From positions 704,001 to 768,000 of the forward strand of contig CAVYNH010000006.1 in the NCBI GenBank assembly GCA_963769885.1: a stretch of DNA of 64,000 bases, read 5' to 3'. The notes below the pieces were generated by a model. That model ran no database searches. It had not been told where the DNA came from and saw only the letters and a list, made by a program, of their open reading frames with translations. Positions 33,974-42,408 of the stretch are shown one piece after another. Source of the DNA: Methanobacteriota archaeon (lineage in GTDB: Archaea; Thermoplasmatota; E2; DHVEG-1). Numbering within the stretch: position 1 is the stretch's first letter; each line of letters begins with the position of its first letter. The position numbers and the translations under genes are program-made.

Positions 33974-34727
33974 ATGCAGGGTATTCCTCCGGGTCATCCG
34001 CGGTATCAGTCGTTGGTATTGCGTGAGCGTCTCGCGCAGGCGGTCCGTGACGGCATCGCGCATGAGACGGGGTTGATCGCGCATGGGCGGGGGGAGGCCT
34101 TTGATTATCTCCTGGGTGAGGTGACGATCCCTGAGGCGCGCGCGGCTGAGGCGGCCGCGGTCGCGGCGTTACTAGTAGCGAAGAAACCGGTGGTGTCGGT
34201 GAATGGGAACGTGGCCGCGCTTGCGGCGGATGCGTGCGTGGCGTTGTCGAAGGCGGTTTCTGCAAGGCTTGAGGTGAACCTGTTTCATCGGACGGAGCGG
34301 CGGGCGGAGAAGATCGCGAAGGTACCTGAGGACCAATGGTGCCTCCGAGGTTCTCGGGGTGCGTCCGGCGGCGCGTATCCCTGGGCTTGACTCCGATCGG
34401 GGATTGTGCGACGAAAAAGGAATCTTTCCAGCGGATGTGGTGGTGGTGCCGTTGGAGGACGGGGATCGGTGTGAGGCGTTGCGGCGGATGGGCAAGACCG
34501 TAGTCGCGGTGGATTTGAATCCGTTGTCGCGGACGTCGAAGACGGCGTCAATCACGATTGTGGATAACGTGGTGCGTGCGTTGCCGGTGATGACCCGGCT
34601 TGTACCCGAGATGCGCGTGCGGCCGCTGGAGGATCTGAAGCGGCTGGTGCGTAGCTGGGATAATGCGCGGAATCTCGGCGAGGTGCTTTCTTTCCTGTCA
34701 AAAAGACTAAATGCCTTGTATGGTTAG
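33974..34727 (+). CDS. 4-phosphopantoate--beta-alanine ligase (archaeal PPS); frameshift at ~34326 (likely read error)
   Basis: HPRYQSL, GLIAHGRGEAFDYLLGE, SVNGN, EVNLFHRT; second ORF has VPLEDGDR and DLNPLSRT; they join if one base of GGTACC is removed. Confidence 0.88.
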
Positions 34728-34736
34728 GGGTGTTCC

Positions 34737-36038
34737 ATGCTGCGGACTCGGTATTCTACGGATGTGACCGCGTCAGACCATAACACTCAGATAACGGTTG
34801 CGGGGTGGATGGAGGACACGCGGAACCTGGGGTCGATCGCGTTTATTATCCTGCGGGACCAGAAGGGGACGCTGCAGGTGACGTTGCTGAAGAAGAAGAT
34901 TCCGGAGTTGTTCGATCAGCTGGTTGGATTGCCGCGGGAGTCGGTGATCTCAGTGACGGGGCTATGTAAGCCCAATGAGAAGGTCCGGAACGGCTACGAG
35001 GTGCTGCCGGAGTCGGTGCGGGTGCTGTCGGTGGCGGAGACGCCACTGCCGTTGGGGATCGTGGATAAGGTTGAGGCTGATTTTGATACGCGGCTGGACA
35101 ACCGGGTGTTGGATCTGCGGAAGCCGGAGACTCAGGCGGTGTTCCGGATCCGTGACGCGGTGTTGGAGGCCGCGGATGCGTTCTTGCGGTCTGAGGGGTT
35201 CGTGGAGGTGCATACGCCGAAGATCATCGCGAGCTCCTCTGAGGGCGGGACAGAGATGTTTGCGCTGCGGTATTTCGATCGGCCCGCGTTTCTGGCGCAG
35301 TCGCCGCAGTTGTACAAGCAGAGCCTGATGGCGACGGGGCTGGACCGGGTGTTTGAGATCGCGTGGTACTTCCGGGCGGAGGAGCATAACACCCGGCGTC
35401 ATCTGAACGAGTCGACCGCGGTGGACATCGAGATGGCGTTCATCGACAGCGAGGAGGACGTGATGGGCGTCCTGGAGCGGTTGGTGCAGGCGATGTGGCG
35501 GCGGGCGAGCGAATGTACCCATGACCTTGAAGTGTTGAAGAAGTCGGTTGTGGTGCCGTCGGTGCCGTTCCGGCGGCTGCGGTACGATGATGTCGTCAAG
35601 GAGCTGCAGAAGCGAGGCTCGCCGGTTGCGTGGGGGCAGGATTTGAGTACCGAGGACGAGCGCCTGCTCGGGGAATGGATGAAAGAGAAGGGGACTGAGT
35701 TTTATTTCATCACGCGGTATCCGATTCAGGTGAAGCCGTTCTATACGATGCCGGAGGGCTCGAAGCATTCGCGGGGGTTTGACCTGGAGTGCAAGGGGAT
35801 TGAGATCTCGTCGGGCAGCCAGCGGATCCATGACGTCAAGCTGCTCATGGAGCGGATGCGGGCCTGTGGGTTGAACCCGGATGATTTCTCGGCGTATCTG
35901 TCGGCGTTTCGGTATGGGATGCCGCCACATGGGGGGTTCGGGTTTGGAATCGAGCGGTTCCTCATGGAGCTTTTGGAGTTACCGAATATCCGAGAGACGA
36001 TTCTGTTCCCGCGGGACCGGACGCGCCTCACCCCTTGA
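34737..36038 (+). CDS. aspS: Aspartate--tRNA ligase (archaeal type)
   Basis: TRLDNRVLDLR, LAQSPQLYKQ, FRAEEHNTRRHLNE, SGSQRIH, PPHGGFGFGIER, FPRDRTRLTP. Confidence 0.96.
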   Translation: MLRTRYSTDVTASDHNTQITVAGWMEDTRNLGSIAFIILRDQKGTLQVTLLKKKIPELFDQLVGLPRESVISVTGLCKPNEKVRNGYEVLPESVRVLSVAETPLPLGIVDKVEADFDTRLDNRVLDLRKPETQAVFRIRDAVLEAADAFLRSEGFVEVHTPKIIASSSEGGTEMFALRYFDRPAFLAQSPQLYKQSLMATGLDRVFEIAWYFRAEEHNTRRHLNESTAVDIEMAFIDSEEDVMGVLERLVQAMWRRASECTHDLEVLKKSVVVPSVPFRRLRYDDVVKELQKRGSPVAWGQDLSTEDERLLGEWMKEKGTEFYFITRYPIQVKPFYTMPEGSKHSRGFDLECKGIEISSGSQRIHDVKLLMERMRACGLNPDDFSAYLSAFRYGMPPHGGFGFGIERFLMELLELPNIRETILFPRDRTRLTP

Positions 36039-36039
36039 G

Positions 36040-36164
36040 GAATGCAGCCGCATCACAGTATCCGGAGTACCGTTCGACTGCGCAGTTTCCTTCAAATTCG
36101 CCTTTCTCGCCGGGTAATCAATCCCATGCGGGACGGACTGCAGTTCAGCCCCGGCCGCCTGCAT
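36040..36164 (-). pseudogene. Remnant resembling a DUF2795 protein
   Basis: AELQSVPHGIDYPARKANLKETAQSNGTPDTVM resembles the DUF2795 G.DYPA.K..L...A..NG pattern; resemblance is lost where the frame runs into the aspS 3' end. Confidence 0.45.
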
Positions 36165-36320
36165 GCTCTCTTGATCGTTCAGGTTGTATGACTTTTCGCC
36201 TCCAAGCCGCCGACACCCCCAGGGATTGAAGAAGACGTCACGTCCCTTCGACAATCTAAGAAAAAAAGATTGAACTAAGACCGAAGATGACGAAATGAAA
36301 GAAGGGAAAAAAAGAAAGGT

Positions 36321-36656
36321 TTACGGGAATTCAATTACCCCGTCGAACCGAGCGCAGACCAGGTGATTTCGCACAAACCCTTTGAAATCGTTCTGCACAA
36401 TCACCTTCTGTAACATATGAAGCGTTCCTGTTTGATACGTGCCCATCCAGTGGGTCCGGTAGTGTAAGAAGATCGCCCGGAACGTGAGTTCATGCCCCGA
36501 GTTGATAAACCTCGGATGCGTGATGATACCCCATAACATAGTAGATCCGATATCCGTCGTCTGTTTCTCATGGTCCGGGACCACCTGGAACGCCATGCTC
36601 AAGGGCATGAGTGAAAAGAATACCAACGCTAATGCAGCCAAATATCGTATACGCAT
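36321..36656 (-). CDS. Small secreted hypothetical protein
   Basis: GGAGG upstream; signal peptide; ends FKGFVRNHLVCARF. Confidence 0.7.
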   Translation of the reverse strand: MRIRYLAALALVFFSLMPLSMAFQVVPDHEKQTTDIGSTMLWGIITHPRFINSGHELTFRAIFLHYRTHWMGTYQTGTLHMLQKVIVQNDFKGFVRNHLVCARFDGVIEFP

Positions 36657-36952
36657 TCACAGCCTCCAGTAAACTAAATACACTCAACCAATTTAAATGT
36701 TTTGAATAATATTTAATAATGCTCAAAAATCCCTTATGGAAGCCTTTCCTTCGTTCGATGTCTGAAGAAATCCCGATTTTACACCCAAACTCAGGAAAAA
36801 TAACGTTAGATTTGTTTCAAAAACGTGCTAGCGATATCTCCTACGTAGATTCGCTTTTCCGCTTTGAGAAGTACCGAATATCAGACCGATGATACCCTTG
36901 CCGTTCGAAGACCTGCGTGTGGATGGAGAAAACCATAGCATAGCGGAAGAAG

Positions 36953-37011
36953 AATGCAAGGGAAGAAATTTGAACACCAAATTACCGGCATGATAATGAA
37001 TGACAGATAAC
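36953..37011. repeat. Degenerate att-like repeat C (tRNA-Leu 3' end copy + 36-bp arm)
   Basis: aatgcaagggaagaaatttgaac matches the tRNA end at 19/23; the following arm matches that of repeat B at 26/36. Confidence 0.7.
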
Positions 37012-37055
37012 GATTTACTCCTAATAAGTCTACAAGTTCATACATTCTCACAATA

Positions 37056-37772
37056 TTACCATAAGTATGGAATTAACCTATATTTTGTCCTTTTAGAATA
37101 TTCTTCATAACCGTTCAATTCTATTTTTAATGTCTTGTCTTCATAATACGTTCGTAAAATAATAAGAAATATATTTATGAAAACTGGAATGAAACTAAAC
37201 AATGAACCAAGCATGAAGGGATAACAAAGAGAAGCAAGAATAGCAGATAAATAACCCGGATGTCTTACGTATTTATATGGACCGATTGTACATAATCGCT
37301 GGTTAGATAATTTATCATTTTGATATGTGAGGATAAAATGAGCATTACTAATATAGGCCCATAATGCTAAAAAAGAACAAAGAATAAAAATGACGCTACT
37401 TGGATATATTGCTATAAATGGAATACTTGACCATTGAAAACGAACAACATCGAGTCCAGCAACAATTAACATAGAAAATCCGGATAGAGAGTAAAAGATT
37501 GCGAAATATTTATCATAACGCTTGGTTTCCTTCCAACTGAATTTTCCTCTTTCATTCAATAATTGTGGATTAATAATCATTAATATTAAAATGTACAAAA
37601 TTTGATAGAACAACATGAGACAAATGTATATCCATCCTCTCACCCAAGAAAGAGTTCCGGCGGAACCAAATAAAATTAAAATGCCGATAATAATGAGGGC
37701 AAATTCTCTTATTATTCCTCGTATTCCAAGGATATTGAGTTTTGTCGAATCATTACTCATAAAATCCTTCAT
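37056..37772 (-). CDS. Isoprenylcysteine carboxylmethyltransferase (ICMT/PEMT)-family membrane protein
   Basis: Multiple TM helices; GPYKYVRHPGY, EDKTL..EL.GYEEY...YRLIPYLW; AT-rich. Confidence 0.85.
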   Translation of the reverse strand: MKDFMSNDSTKLNILGIRGIIREFALIIIGILILFGSAGTLSWVRGWIYICLMLFYQILYILILMIINPQLLNERGKFSWKETKRYDKYFAIFYSLSGFSMLIVAGLDVVRFQWSSIPFIAIYPSSVIFILCSFLALWAYISNAHFILTYQNDKLSNQRLCTIGPYKYVRHPGYLSAILASLCYPFMLGSLFSFIPVFINIFLIILRTYYEDKTLKIELNGYEEYSKRTKYRLIPYLW

Positions 37773-37881
37773 TTACATTTTATTTATCAGTTCACCGCAA
37801 TTCAAATTAATTTTTTTTCCATCTAATTACATTCGATAATTTATTCAATCTGCGTGTAAATCATTCCGTTCTATTTAAAAT

Positions 37882-37940
37882 AGTGCAGGGGACGGGATTT
37901 GAACATCAAAATGCCGGCATGAATATTGTTGACATGTAAC
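37882..37940. repeat. att-like repeat B (tRNA-Leu 3' end copy + 36-bp arm)
   Basis: agtgcaggggacgggatttgaac matches 38833..38855 at 22/23; arm contains the palindrome atgccggcat (37911-37920). Confidence 0.85.
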
Positions 37941-37997
37941 CTGAAAAAGGGCATGCTAATAAATAGTCAATCCATTTTGGAATTGAGAAGAATACGG

Positions 37998-38828
37998 ATG
38001 GAATTAAACGCTATAGATTTTCATAATGATTCTAAGGATGAATCAAATACAGCCGAATATGAGTATATCGATAAAATTTTAATAAGTACTGAACGAAACA
38101 AAATTCTTTTTGATTGGTCTCCATTGGCGATTATTATCCTCAGTAAAGAAGGAATTTTTTTAGATGCGAATAGAAAGCTCTATGATTGGTTAGGATATAG
38201 ACCAGATGAAATTATCGGTAGAGGTTTCAAAGAGGTTCCTTTTATACCTGATAAGTCAAAAATAACAATTGTCAATAATTTCAATAAACGTATATGTGGA
38301 GAAGAAGTCCCTCCGTATGAAGTTGAACTTGTTCATAAAAATGGAATGCAGAAATATGGAGAAATTCATGGGAATTTACTCCGTGATGAGTCCCGTGGGA
38401 TTACAATGGATATTGTAATGGTATCTGATATCACGGAAAAAAAGAAAGCATTGGTAAGTTTACAAGATAACGAAGAAAGATATAGAATCTTGTTTGAGAA
38501 TACGACTGATCTTATACAAAGTGTTAATGCTGAAGGTAATTTTGTTGACGTAAACCCTGCATGGTTAGAGACGTTGGAGTATTCTAGAGAAGACCTCCAT
38601 AGTCTGACGTTGATCAATATTTTACGTGAAGATGAGATTCAACATTGTACGGAGCTTTTTCATAAAGTTATCCAAGGTGAAAACTTCAATAATATCGAGA
38701 CTGTTTTTATTTCAAAAACTGGTAAAGAAATCTATGTGAAAGGCAGTGCAAAAGGGTATTTTAGAGACGGCATATTTATTGCTAGTGTAGGAATTTTTAG
38801 GGATATTTCTAAAATGAAATCAGTATAA
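37998..38828 (+). CDS. Stand-alone tandem PAS-PAS domain protein
   Basis: Two PAS/PAC repeats (..N..LGY...EIIG; DITEKKK; ERYRILFE; VNPAWLETLEYS; RDIS); no output domain; AT-rich. Confidence 0.85.
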   Translation: MELNAIDFHNDSKDESNTAEYEYIDKILISTERNKILFDWSPLAIIILSKEGIFLDANRKLYDWLGYRPDEIIGRGFKEVPFIPDKSKITIVNNFNKRICGEEVPPYEVELVHKNGMQKYGEIHGNLLRDESRGITMDIVMVSDITEKKKALVSLQDNEERYRILFENTTDLIQSVNAEGNFVDVNPAWLETLEYSREDLHSLTLINILREDEIQHCTELFHKVIQGENFNNIETVFISKTGKEIYVKGSAKGYFRDGIFIASVGIFRDISKMKSV

Positions 38829-38834
38829 AAAAAG

Positions 38835-38919
38835 TGCAGGGGAAGGGATTTGAACCCTTGGACCTCTACAGGACAAGACCCTCGATCTTGCGCCGTTGAC
38901 CAAGCTTGGCTACCCCTGC
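38835..38919 (-). tRNA. tRNA-Leu(GAG)
   Basis: GCAGGGG/CCCCTGC acceptor stem, anticodon arm CAAGA-TCGAGGG-TCTTG, long variable arm, GTTCAAAT T-loop; CCA not encoded. Confidence 0.92.
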
Positions 38920-38973
38920 ACGGGTAGTTCTCCCTTAATTATCAAAACACTAATATACCTTTGGGCACGACGG

Positions 38974-39495
38974 TTACAGGGTATCCAGGTCCTGCCCACA
39001 CCGCTCGCTCAACTCGGCATGCAGCGCTCGCAGGCGCGCCGCCAACTGCGGCCGCCTTTTCTGCAGCGCCTTCTCAATCTCCCGGGATATAGGCTGCCGA
39101 TGTTCGTTATCAATGAGGTTATCCGCATGGGCCACGATTTTCTCTTCAAGGGTCCTTGGGACATAGTCCCTCTCGGGCAGCCCCAGCCGGACGGCCTCCG
39201 CCCGGGGGATGCCGGCACCCATGTGTCGCTCAATGATTAGCACCACCTCGCGTGGCAATCCGAGGTCCTGCGCGATTCGCGCGCCCTCAATCGCATGCCG
39301 CATGCCCTGCGTCTGGGACCGGCCGATATCATGCAACAGCGCACCCACCTCGACGAGCGCACAGTCGGCCTCCGCCTTCCGCGCGATGAGAACGGCGAGA
39401 GAGCGGACCGCCTCGCAATGCGCAATCACATCATCAGAGCAGCCAGTGGTCTTGAGGAGCCTACGGCACTGGTCAGGGGAAGGCAACGCAAGCAT
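38974..39495 (-). CDS. HD-domain phosphohydrolase (HDIG type)
   Basis: VIAHC, LLHDIGR, HAIEG, IERHMGAG, EEKIVAHADN. Confidence 0.85.
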   Translation of the reverse strand: MLALPSPDQCRRLLKTTGCSDDVIAHCEAVRSLAVLIARKAEADCALVEVGALLHDIGRSQTQGMRHAIEGARIAQDLGLPREVVLIIERHMGAGIPRAEAVRLGLPERDYVPRTLEEKIVAHADNLIDNEHRQPISREIEKALQKRRPQLAARLRALHAELSERCGQDLDTL

Positions 39496-39500
39496 ACTTC

Positions 39501-40013
39501 CTACCATCCCTTGGTCTGAACGGTTTTGCCGCGCGGATTCGGCGTGATTGTCAGTTGGCCATCGAAGCGCTTGTTCTGCCACGCACCTTTGGTGAACCGA
39601 TCGAGGAAGAGAGCCACGGCCGCGACCTCGGAATGCGGTTGGTTGCCAACCGCGATGTTGACGTCGGCCTCCTCATAAAAATACCGCGGGACTTTCTCCG
39701 CTCCGACCACAAGAAGAAGATCTCTATTCCGATCGATCTTCGGAAGACCGGTCTCTAATGATTCCCCGTACATCGTGAGGTGCACGATGGTTCCGGACCA
39801 GTGCCGCAGAACCGAGCGGCCGTCGACGCCGGTCTCGATGGCGAAGTCGCCGCCGAACCGTTTGACAACCGACTCGATCGTCTTCTTGATGTTATCGTCT
39901 TTGGTCGTGATAAGAATCTTGTCAGCACCGAAAGCTCTGGCGACGAGCGCGACGTGCGTCGTGATGCGTTTATCGCGGTCGAGGCGATGGCCATGGCGTA
40001 GAATCGTAATCAC
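39501..40013 (-). CDS. trm56: tRNA (cytidine(56)-2'-O)-methyltransferase
   Basis: RDKRITTHVALVARAFGA, VHLTMYG, VGAEKVP, VGNQPHSEVAA. Confidence 0.94.
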   Translation of the reverse strand: MITILRHGHRLDRDKRITTHVALVARAFGADKILITTKDDNIKKTIESVVKRFGGDFAIETGVDGRSVLRHWSGTIVHLTMYGESLETGLPKIDRNRDLLLVVGAEKVPRYFYEEADVNIAVGNQPHSEVAAVALFLDRFTKGAWQNKRFDGQLTITPNPRGKTVQTKGW

Positions 40014-40040
40014 TGAAATCTCACCTGTGAAACGATAGGT

Positions 40041-40361
40041 CTATGAGCGGGCTTTTTTCTTTTTCTCGATTGCCTGGTCAACCTGGAGGTCGACGGTGCT
40101 TGGTCTGCTATCGGTTGAAGTAGACGTTTTCGCTTTCTCTTTGATCGCAATCCTATCAACCTGGCTCTCGGCGACTTCCGGGGAGACCCAATATTTCCGT
40201 TGCTTCGGTTGAGAGATAGTGCTTCTCCGATCTGCGGCGATCAGCGTCTCGGCGTATTCGAGGACCGGTTCGGGTTGCGTTGGCTGTGTTTGCTCGGTGG
40301 CCGGTTCGGTCCTCGTTTCTTTGGTCTCAGTCTTGCGTTTGAAGATCTTCCATCTCGGCAG
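40041..40361 (-). CDS. Hypothetical protein (106 aa) with probable CTG start
   Basis: Translated by hand: (M)PRWKIFKRKTETKE...VLEYAETL...KYW...VD...VDLQVDQAIEKKKKARS; GGAGG just upstream of the CTG. Confidence 0.6.
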   Translation of the reverse strand: MPRWKIFKRKTETKETRTEPATEQTQPTQPEPVLEYAETLIAADRRSTISQPKQRKYWVSPEVAESQVDRIAIKEKAKTSTSTDSRPSTVDLQVDQAIEKKKKARS

Positions 40362-40491
40362 GGGGCTTTCCTCCTGAAGTCTTCTATGGATAGGGGAACT
40401 TTTTTTTCATTGATAAGGTTTTGCTGTGCAAGGTTTGCTATAGAAAGACATATATCCCGCCCTGAAATTCAGGAGACGGAAGACCTCCTGT

Positions 40492-40565
40492 GGGCTCATG
40501 GTCTAGCTGGTTATGACATCGCCTTCACACGGCGAAGGCCGCCGGTTCGAATCCGGCTGAGCCCA
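40492..40565 (+). tRNA. tRNA-Val(CAC)
   Basis: GGGCTCA/TGAGCCC acceptor stem, TCGCC-TTCACAC-GGCGA anticodon arm, GTTCGAAT T-loop. Confidence 0.95.
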
Positions 40566-40674: not shown

Positions 40675-42408
40675 TCAATCGACGAGATTGAATATCCCGA
40701 TCAGGAAGCGACCCGTTTTCCTCCCCGAATACTCCTCCGAGAACACAAGCGTCTCGTGCGAGTGATAATGGGTGAACTTCAATGGTTTAAGCTCCAGAGC
40801 CCGAATATTCACCGCGTTGACAGTAACGAACCCTTTATCCAGCGTCCAATTCGCGTATGAACCGAACATCACCGTCTTCCATAACTCATGGATTGTTATC
40901 GACCAAGGGTCAGACCAGTTGCTCTCTTGAGAGTACGTATCCTTTAGTCTTACCCGCATCCCGTACACCCCGACCTTTGGCCATGCATGAGTCGCAGTGA
41001 CGGTCGACCCAGACGCATTCGGACCAAGCCACCCTGTGACGTTTCCATCCCCCCAGTCCCACTGACACCAGACATCATCGCCATCAGGATCGGTGGCATT
41101 CGCAGAGAAGGTCACTGAGGTATTGACGAGCCCCCAGGATGGCCCTGTGACCACTGGCGTCGTAGGCGGCATGTTGGTTGTTCCGCCCTTATCAATCCAA
41201 AAATTATCGATAACTGTCGTCCCGTCGTCGAGATACGTCACCATGTGCAGTGAATTGTTCGTGAAGACGTTAATCCTGGCGTAATTGTAGTTCTTCACCG
41301 CGACCGCGAGATAATACGCGGAGCCGATATCATATAACGGCGCGCCGCAGGAGCCCGTCGTCGCATAGATGACGCCTGTCGGATTCCTGTAATAATGGAG
41401 GCTGTGATTCGTGACCGTCGGATTCGATCCTCCGCCTGCGAGCGGATAGGTCCGCTCGTAATAATGATTGTGCCCGTTGAACACAATGTCCACCTTATAT
41501 TGAAGGAAGAGCGGCACGAGGTATGTCTGCACGCCCGCGTCACCGCCGTGCCCGCCGACATTGTAGGGTGGGTTGTGGAAGATGGCGATTTTCCAGGGGT
41601 GTGCCGAGTCGTTCGCCGCTACCTGAAGATCATGTACGAGCCAGTTGTATTGTTCAGACCCTGTCGAATAGGTGTCTTGGCTTGTGCTGAGGACGATGAT
41701 GTGCATGTTGCTGTAGTTCAGCGAGTACCATCGTTCGTTATTCGGGAGGGTAAATCGATGAATGTAGTTGACCCCGCTTTCTTCATGGTTTCCGATTGAC
41801 GGGACTATAGGGACGTGGTTTCCAAGGGGTTGCCAAATTGTAAACCACCCGTCGTACAAAGTGGCGTCGTCGCTACCAACTAAGTCTCCGCTGAATCCCA
41901 CGAAATCCGGGTTCACGATGATGACTTTTCCCACGATTTTCTGAAGCTCGGTTGGGTTGTCACGCGAATCTCCCATGGAGATGAAGGTGAAATTCGTGGC
42001 GGTTGCGGGGGAGGTCGTGAACGTGGAGTCAGGGCTCCATCCTCCCGTGGCGTCGCCGCAGGAGTAGTGGTAGGTCGTGCCTGGTGAGAGCCCGGTGATT
42101 TCGACCATGTGGATCAGCCCGTTCGTTCCTTGAGAGTCGGTGGTCCCCGTGGCGGTCTGGCCGTACCCCGAGTCCGGTCCGTATTTTACCGTGCTCCCGG
42201 TCGTCGCTGGTGTCGTCTCCCAGACCACGCTCATCGTCGTTGATGTGTTGTCTTGCCAGTTCAGATGCACGTCGTAGGGGAGGTCTCTGGTGGTTTGCGA
42301 AGCCAATATAAGGAAGGAGGAGGTGATGAGGGTGAAGGTGAGTATACCTAGAAGAAAATAGCCTCTGTGAAAACCCGGTTTGGATACGATCATGCCAACA
42401 AGCCTCAA
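40675..42408 (-). CDS. Secreted purple acid phosphatase-like protein (FN3 + metallophosphoesterase + PKD + C-terminal domain)
   Basis: GLSPGTTYHY, GDSR, GDLV, GNHE, FHNPPY, GHNHYYER, WDWGDG; start uncertain. Confidence 0.85.
   Translation of the reverse strand: MRLVGMIVSKPGFHRGYFLLGILTFTLITSSFLILASQTTRDLPYDVHLNWQDNTSTTMSVVWETTPATTGSTVKYGPDSGYGQTATGTTDSQGTNGLIHMVEITGLSPGTTYHYSCGDATGGWSPDSTFTTSPATATNFTFISMGDSRDNPTELQKIVGKVIIVNPDFVGFSGDLVGSDDATLYDGWFTIWQPLGNHVPIVPSIGNHEESGVNYIHRFTLPNNERWYSLNYSNMHIIVLSTSQDTYSTGSEQYNWLVHDLQVAANDSAHPWKIAIFHNPPYNVGGHGGDAGVQTYLVPLFLQYKVDIVFNGHNHYYERTYPLAGGGSNPTVTNHSLHYYRNPTGVIYATTGSCGAPLYDIGSAYYLAVAVKNYNYARINVFTNNSLHMVTYLDDGTTVIDNFWIDKGGTTNMPPTTPVVTGPSWGLVNTSVTFSANATDPDGDDVWCQWDWGDGNVTGWLGPNASGSTVTATHAWPKVGVYGMRVRLKDTYSQESNWSDPWSITIHELWKTVMFGSYANWTLDKGFVTVNAVNIRALELKPLKFTHYHSHETLVFSEEYSGRKTGRFLIGIFNLVD

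Follow-up and report, generated by a model that had tools for sequence, protein, structure and literature searches.

Integrase-free single-gene cassettes at tRNA-Leu genes of an archaeal family and a candidate tRNA-linked integrase for their movement

Results

Comparison of metagenome-assembled genomes indicates that the AT-rich DNA behind tRNA-Leu(GAG) of this archaeon belongs to a family-wide set of short cassettes, which appear to be mobile as exact units between chromosomal sites and between genera and not to be just relics. They are probably moved, by one route or another, by a family of tyrosine integrases whose genes lie, together with an accessory gene, directly behind tRNA genes of relatives. 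In the following, the window is the whole stretch of 64,000 nucleotides that was analyzed, G000:C6:704001-768000; G numbers denote genomes (G000 is the genome of the window), C numbers its contigs, and L numbers the sequence stretches compared. All sequences are metagenome assemblies, in which joins at the shared arm-and-core repeats can be assembly errors.

The target site and its copies are arranged as follows.

38834 to 38919, minus strand: tRNA-Leu(GAG), the target (attB/attL), called with ARAGORN; its final 22 to 23 bases are the recombination core.
37905 to 37970, minus strand: arm of cassette 1 (P-arm) with the palindrome at 37911-37920; outer limit approximate.
37882 to 37904, minus strand: proximal core copy, 22/23, junction of cassettes 1 and 2 (repeat match).
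36976 to 37030, minus strand: arm of cassette 2, palindrome degenerate; outer limit approximate.
36953 to 36975, minus strand: distal core copy, 19/23, outer boundary of the array (repeat match).

The 23-mer at 38833-38855, the 3' end of the tRNA, is copied at 37882 with 22 and at 36953 with 19 of 23 positions identical, at spacings of 951 and 929 bp. The best match in 1,000 shuffles of the AT-rich 2.4 kb did not exceed 18/23 (18 once). Adjacent 36-bp arms agree with each other at 26 of 36 positions, compared to 11 of 36 with the tRNA's own continuation; among randomly drawn position pairs, which may have included the real repeat itself, an arm match of at least 26/36 had a frequency of 4e-5. 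The 10-bp palindrome of the proximal arm has the position that is fixed in the family, 14 to 9 bases before the core. Core copies, arm identity, and palindrome had all been claimed in the original prediction and were confirmed by re-measurement. Furthermore, the arm of cassette 1 is conserved in a contig of a sister species (L296), and a near-identical arm to that of cassette 2 follows a homologous gene in L227. The intervals have a GC content of 31 to 34% versus 55 to 62% in the flanks, and both cassette genes have a GC3 of 0.26 versus 0.81 in the AspRS gene. Contigs of close relatives track the chromosome over 34506-36916 and 38891-40565 and diverge at the array; this comparison used contigs only, and "skip" joints (sides of 21 to 33 bases, 85% likeness) were not counted as excision.

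The genes within and around the array are the following.

37998 to 38828, plus strand: cassette 1 gene, PAS-PAS protein of 276 aa, whole (Pfam, PF13426 etc.).
37056 to 37772, minus strand: cassette 2 gene, ICMT/PEMT-family membrane methyltransferase of 238 aa (Pfam, PF04140 and PF04191).
36321 to 36656, minus strand: 111-aa gene of unknown family, chromosomal flank and no cassette (syntenic homologs beside AspRS in G001 and L296).
34737 to 36038, plus strand: aspartyl/asparaginyl-tRNA synthetase family gene (AspRS), conserved distal flank (Pfam; same flank in many relatives).
38974 to 39582, minus strand: HD-domain gene, conserved flank upstream of the tRNA and anchor of the comparison (Pfam; relatives).

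As predicted, each interval holds one AT-rich gene, the two in opposite orientations. The stop codon of the PAS-PAS gene is 5 nt from the end of the tRNA, and its start is the ATG at 37998, which gives the length of the homologs, not the TTG at 37926 within the arm. About 30 homologs of 252 to 288 aa share 57 to 88% identity; the possibility that the gene is a kinase truncated by erosion was rejected, since these homologs, the ones compared here, are equal in length. In more distant relatives the PAS family is found without cores, and hence the capture of new genes needs an additional step; judged by this distribution, the PAS gene appears to be an ordinary accessory gene that was turned into a cassette in this lineage. 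The ICMT unit is also present as a one-gene unit in L227, where its identity, counted with the arm and up to the core, is 88.6% and its neighbors are different ones, in L086 with its arm swapped relative to the window, and in G126 with another arm. The host belongs to the Thermoplasmatota; the cargo homologs that carry a name come from Thermoplasmatota MAGs, and the gene content of the window is archaeal (Trm56).

Several details of the locus are recorded here. G001 and L296 have, between the tRNA and the 111-aa gene, a GNAT gene (L021:13214-13663; L296:2469-2915) that is absent from the window (36660-36950); at its place in L296 there is also a 65% homolog of the purple acid phosphatase of the window (40675-42408). 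In G097, a PAS-PAS homolog is located 25 bp behind tRNA-Ile(GAT) (L255:1392-2337), without a Leu-type core. The T-stem of tRNA-Leu(GAG) in the window (38834-38870), and likewise in L296, is of the type of the other Leu tRNAs, and a GAG-specific T-stem is kept in 17 relatives including the congeneric G001 (compared: L296, L021, and L030). The GAG arrays of relatives with the GAG-specific T-stem carry GAG-type cores. Conversion of the T-arm may have opened the GAG locus here to the majority cassette pool.

The same system is widespread in this genome and in its family. Four of the five tRNA-Leu genes (CAA, GAG, CAG, and TAA) share the 3' core, with one or two copies each at a distance of 0.9 to 2.3 kb, and further copies are solitary or lie in a tRNA-less array (C6:290456-292349). 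A family genome has up to 29 copies of the core. The arm plus core was found in 72 of 107 family genomes and, in the rest of the class, in 2 of 89. Since the pattern depends on the sequence of this particular tRNA, variants could exist in other families. Among 144 non-tRNA cores that were found by the core alone, 102 are preceded by an arm with a palindromic hexamer 14 to 9 bases before the core, compared to 2.6% in shuffles. We cut 274 core-to-core units from the fetched arrays and 120 metagenome contigs. Their median length is 1,027 bp, 187 contain a single ORF (of at least 80 aa), of which 117 are oriented with the tRNA and 70 against it, and many have a TATA-like box of their own. Arrays without a tRNA often start with a site whose upstream bases mimic a tRNA T-stem and not the arm, and by this resemblance such first sites appear to be ectopic targets. 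Copies of the same gene have swapped arms, and arm additions of 71 to 74 bp occur.

A gene-less unit of 83 bp with a Leu-type core lies directly behind tRNA-Met (L016:14546-14629, corresponding to G000:C4:138546-138629) and has 15 bases in common with the PAS cassette of the window, in its outer arm. Arm-plus-core units of like kind, 73 to 82 bp long, are present in L024, L087, and L358. Together with the arm swaps, these units of 70 to 80 bp suggest that arms are modular. A second arm type (L015:10722, L011:6748, L076:5685, and L351:1735) contains the T-loop sequence once more in inverted form, which yields a near-palindrome (11-5-11) reminiscent of a dif site, and has cores altered in the T-loop; possibly, it reflects a second recombinase specificity. 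One recurrent cassette carries a PemK/MazF-like toxin gene (L024:2795-3124, L025:4521-4850, L035:2834-3163, and L073:3921-4235), which is the first of its array in G017 and G011 and the third in G016; in G115 it lies at tRNA-Leu(TAA). Two M14 carboxypeptidase cassettes of this genome are 83% identical (L009:5027-6226 and L012:7041-8291), one at tRNA-Leu(CAG) and the other in the tRNA-less array. Two tRNA-Val(TAC) calls on the same strand, 2.3 kb apart (G000:C6 401616-401689 and 403914-403989), are possibly a full-length duplication from another integration.

That units move is seen in an exact pair of alleles, an empty site of the kind that the original prediction had foreseen: L136 with a 1,347-bp unit added exactly at the core of tRNA-Leu(TAA) gives L224, save for an unrelated IS in the unit that follows. 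The core's final base travels with the left end of the cassette, as expected for a crossover within the core, and markers place the crossover between two bases before the core and the core's last base. A 99.9% identical copy of this unit occupies the second position of an array behind tRNA-Thr (L225). Two species, G119 and G127, have at unrelated loci a methyltransferase cassette of 1,132 bp with 98.5% identity over its whole length, and it is also present in G105 (94%) and G029 (84%); thus, the same cassettes do occur at different loci. The nitroreductase unit at tRNA-Leu(CAA) of this genome is 93% identical to one in another Leu-type array of G001, compared to 70 to 86% for the backbone. At the window's own locus, 13 mapped relatives have differing genes between tRNA-Leu(GAG) and AspRS, so that cargo varies as anticipated: the congeneric G001 has no cassette there, and in L296 the PAS cassette, arm included, is the first of the array and the ICMT unit is missing. 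Among site pairs, 23 have only the sequence after the core in common and 16 only that before it, and most change at the core. A three-cassette block common to L346 and L198 has its beginning within an arm that both share; it may result from a join in assembly, and no conclusion is based on it.

The original prediction also held that older cassettes are pushed outward. As a trend this stands, with a mean of 0.50 core mismatches in the first versus 1.04 in the last position of 48 arrays (p = 0.01), a set partly picked by the exact pattern and therefore biased toward intact sites. The window pair itself gives no order of the two cassettes: divergence from the nearest homolog at fourfold sites is 0.15 for the PAS and 0.19 for the ICMT gene, both below the backbone (0.34 to 0.39).

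A candidate for the moving enzyme was found at the same tRNA in G004, where a 181-aa gene is accompanied by a 313-aa tyrosine recombinase (PF02899 + PF00589). Of the 107 family genomes, 19 have homologs of this helper, in nearly all cases as a gene pair directly behind a tRNA. A tyrosine recombinase near the same arm had been expected elsewhere; indeed, accessory gene and integrase stand behind tRNA-Leu in six relatives (GAG, TAA in two, CAG, and CAA in two), and two elements end in the cassette-type arm and core. One of these (G082, 9.4 kb) encodes an MCM helicase, a resolvase, and TrkH; the other (G105, 17.6 kb) is followed by the methyltransferase cassette described above. No conjugation genes were seen in helper elements. 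The six Leu-linked integrases form one clade with one Ser-linked protein (support 89/97, below the tool's threshold for a firm branch). In 19 elements with accessory gene and integrase, a palindrome of the same kind recurs at +29/30 past the core of the tRNA, with a TATA-like box after it.

The integrase has SAM-like and catalytic domains (Phage_int_SAM and Phage_integrase; PF02899/PF13495 + PF00589) and the catalytic set R, K, HxxR, and Y, including R154 and H257-x-x-R260. Tyrosine recombinases usually carry a second His/Trp where the helper family (L038:3291-4232) has a conserved Asp (ELRGD). It scores 157 bits on the XerA model (cut-off, 220), and its best matches in a phage collection are 22 to 26% identical. 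In IMG/VR, a single contig (L307, 4,789 bp, classed as viral) has accessory gene and integrase, the latter 44% identical to the candidate helper, with no tRNA in the stretch compared. The 181-aa accessory protein has no Pfam match; Arc-like matches in 9 of 21 members, a long helix, and weak C-terminal winged-helix matches were noted, and a fold search gave nothing at E<=0.001 and weak winged-helix matches only. It probably binds the palindrome.

Neither a cognate integrase nor an accessory gene was found in this genome (92% complete), and the window contains no tyrosine recombinase at all, in agreement with the claim that the cassettes, which share an attP-like arm, are free of an integrase. 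In the array-richest genus (19 genomes), no Leu-linked helper was found, only Ser- and Glu-linked relatives; the array-rich G121 and G017 gave no PF00589 match, and inside arrays the helper profiles hit only L038 itself and unrelated or broken recombinases. Resident enzymes of this genome were considered and rejected: eight PF00589 matches lie at other tRNAs (His, Arg, and Pro) or at non-tRNA sites and are weak on the helper profile, and a FEN1-adjacent recombinase is patchy (37 of 107 genomes) and multi-copy in the family. One serine resolvase is present (C7:35961). Two Xer-like recombinases, 86% identical, and a fragment occur at non-tRNA sites here (L001:1018-2040, L002, and L005), with homologs near arrays in L158 and L232.

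Units might be shuffled without this integrase, by host homologous recombination via arm plus core (up to about 80 bp) or by an unrecognized resident recombinase. Such a process would agree with the lack of a helper in most array-bearing genomes, with the arms swapped between copies of the same gene (71- to 74-bp additions; ICMT in L086 versus the window), and with the L346/L198 block beginning inside an arm. However, at the left end of the unit in the filled/empty pair, and likewise in G119 versus G127, homology is restricted to the core and a few bases, the palindrome at a fixed distance over 72 genomes points to a site-specific binder, and no tyrosine recombinase is conserved throughout the family (one resident candidate was tested, the FEN1-adjacent one). 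We consider it unlikely.

The palindrome on the tRNA side distinguishes helpers from cassettes: it was found at 1 of 394 internal sites and at 4 of 52 tRNA sites, of which three are helpers and one is a remnant. Decay intermediates (L285, L286, and L231) comprise truncated accessory genes with a tRNA-side palindrome, which stand behind tRNA-Arg and tRNA-Ser, and a palindrome kept only by half, which stands behind tRNA-Leu(CAA). Such decay, and the existence of large elements with the same arm, would fit pure erosion, in which each unit is the dead, immobile remainder of a separate large integrase-bearing element; a three-step erosion route is the published origin of CIMEs (PMC5704250). However, independent deletions do not yield whole units that are 98.5 to 99.9% identical at different loci, remnants retain the tRNA-side palindrome that 393 of 394 internal cassette ends lack, and the cargo genes are whole. 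Erosion may explain the origin of the arm, not present mobility; as an account of the whole array it is very unlikely and, provided that long reads bear out the displaced identical units, largely refuted by them. None of the three outcomes that would have spoken against the original prediction, namely eroded large elements, an unconserved arm, or invariant cargo without empty-site alleles, applies in full.

Discussion

In our model, a cassette has the form core, gene, arm, core and would be non-autonomous. A tRNA-Leu-specific, Xer-like tyrosine integrase, which the chromosome would not keep, would recombine cassettes at the 3' core of tRNA-Leu. The enzyme would arrive on rare integrative elements that have accessory gene and integrase behind the tRNA, then replication and cargo genes, and end in the same arm and core. 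Such an element would insert into the tRNA ahead of resident cassettes and, on excision via a more distal arm and core, would take them to a new host or site. Later excision through the element's own arm would leave a cassette flush against the tRNA, and repeated rounds would build polarized stacks; excision between the left end of the helper and a cassette arm would produce a complete attP and thus a vehicle for the cassette. Exact core boundaries, movement of whole units, variable cargo, a shared palindrome and arm, and an integrase clade beside tRNA-Leu are the parts of the mechanism that emerge from comparison of the assemblies; the identity of the enzyme, the accessory protein as palindrome binder, and the choice between cis and trans we infer.

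This CIME-like hitch-hiking in cis is the route we tentatively prefer, at somewhat short of an even chance. The attP of the helper would have a palindrome on both sides of the core, and the palindrome on the tRNA side is probably part of attL. Cassettes with the distal palindrome only favor hitch-hiking in cis over free circles in trans, although circles are compatible with a one-sided palindrome if the one on the tRNA side is only an operator. According to this other route, which had been proposed in the original prediction and which we regard as possible and less likely, an integrase supplied in trans returns free circles of about 1 kb with a single cassette, whose arm and core form a complete attP, to tRNA-Leu or to tRNA-like sites, and the tRNA-side palindrome of helpers is merely the operator of their own promoter. 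Consistent with circles, single cassettes change locus with exact ends, the conserved information is all on one side of the core, as in attC, units show a strong one-gene bias, and the tRNA-side palindrome of helpers stands, operator-like, just before the TATA-like box of the Arc-like gene. However, the search for junctions of excised circles found none among 437 sites, and no terminal repeats were found in 120 metagenome contigs, both weak evidence given assembly; arm plus core had no match in IMG/VR; a non-replicating circle of 1 kb has no evident vehicle between genera; and the palindromes of the helper attP are symmetric about the core, whereas cassettes have only one. For hitch-hiking in cis, G105 offers the matching arrangement, an autonomous element adjacent to a cassette, and no intermediate of a composite transfer was seen in the site comparison.

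The closest known systems are CIMEs and tandem accretion in the ICESt1/ICESt3 family (PMC5704250), where integrase-less units between att sites share one target and can be mobilized with an adjacent autonomous element. Here, too, tandem units without integrase or transfer genes lie between att sites at the 3' end of a tRNA. Both attL and attR are kept in CIMEs; the cassettes have the distal arm (102 of 144) and, if the palindrome is part of attL, lack the other side (tRNA-side palindrome at 1 of 394 sites). Derivation by deletion from an autonomous element is in line with the shared arm and palindrome and with existing remnants, and no cassette was traced to a given parent. Unlike CIMEs, the units number in the hundreds, mostly have one gene and about 1 kb, belong to one archaeal family, keep the distal arm only, and use as targets four tRNA-Leu isoacceptors as well as target copies that lack a tRNA; an Xer-like integrase is encoded by the helper, an integrative element in which no conjugation genes were seen. 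Additive flexible genomic islands (Alteromonas, PMC4898812; "Ca. Actinomarinales," PMC7771536) resemble the arrays in the partial tRNA repeat behind each cassette, in content that differs among relatives, and in near-identical cassettes across species. They are bacterial, and as far as the available text of these two reports goes, neither a shared arm nor a cognate integrase is described for them; here, arm, helper candidate, and exact alleles are resolved. The tycheposon islands of Prochlorococcus (bioRxiv 10.1101/2020.12.28.424599) are alike in repeated integration at a tRNA, older DNA toward the outside, and partial tRNAs left behind; tycheposons are defined as carrying an integrase, whereas here the integrase-free unit is the rule.

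Integrons and CALINs (bioRxiv 10.1101/2022.02.06.479319) likewise have arrays of one-gene cassettes, each with its own end site, and new units in proximal position, and here as well one-gene units with a distal site are shuffled as units. As an analogy, the integron-like character claimed at the outset is therefore sound; the tests of its machinery failed. IntI and the attC hairpin define archaeal integrons as well (bioRxiv 10.1101/2022.02.06.479319). The candidate helper reaches 51 bits on TIGR02249 (cut-off, 265), 60 sites gave no attC-like hairpin folding (median z of 0.10 to 0.15 on either strand; −1.3 to +0.3 for the sites of the window), and in place of a GTTRRRY core site GTT is followed by C in 57 of 60 sites. 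The system has no IntI, attI, or folded attC; its site is a tRNA 3' end plus arm, 70 of the 187 single genes are oppositely oriented, and many units have a TATA-like box. Because IntI and the attC hairpin are lacking, the system is not an integron. Whether equivalent gene capture evolved independently in this archaeal family, with tRNA-Leu and ectopic sites as attI, arm plus core as attC, one-gene cassettes in free circulation among genera, and a recombinase borrowed in trans from passing integrative elements, is an idea that we consider rather doubtful.

The helper elements carry a tyrosine integrase of their own, as do canonical tDNA islands (Islander type), and the cassettes do not. With archaeal integrases of the XerA, pNOB8, and SNJ2 types (PMC8371274 and PMC5861418) and cryptic integrated elements (PMC6563490), the helper shares SAM-like and catalytic domains, a length of about 313 aa, an att site at a tRNA 3' end, a co-encoded accessory protein, and, in one element, an MCM-type replication gene. 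It differs in scoring below the XerA cut-off and in the 181-aa accessory protein without a Pfam match. Tandem integration and integrase loss are known in archaea (PMC8371274 and PMC6563490), in elements that are defined by their integrase and are larger (the cryptic ones have a median of 17 kb). A literature search of incomplete coverage found no paper on this system in this lineage. In sum, the comparisons support well a new form of the known tandem accretion at tRNA genes, which is one-gene, family-wide, and mobile and has a testable helper.

What this means for the family follows from the parts that are now at hand. Additive tRNA islands have long been described by partial tRNA repeats, in most cases with neither the enzyme named nor the site dissected. 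In the present system the components are known in enough detail for tests: a defined arm, a 22-bp core, natural filled and empty alleles, and a two-gene helper. If the helper moves the units, an uncultured and abundant family of sediment archaea would have a shared, fast-moving pool of single genes that contains secreted proteins, sensors, methyltransferases, and PemK-type toxins, and the integrase would be a candidate tool for site-specific insertion in archaea. If circles acting in trans were to prove true, the principle of the integron would have evolved convergently on an ordinary tRNA att site.
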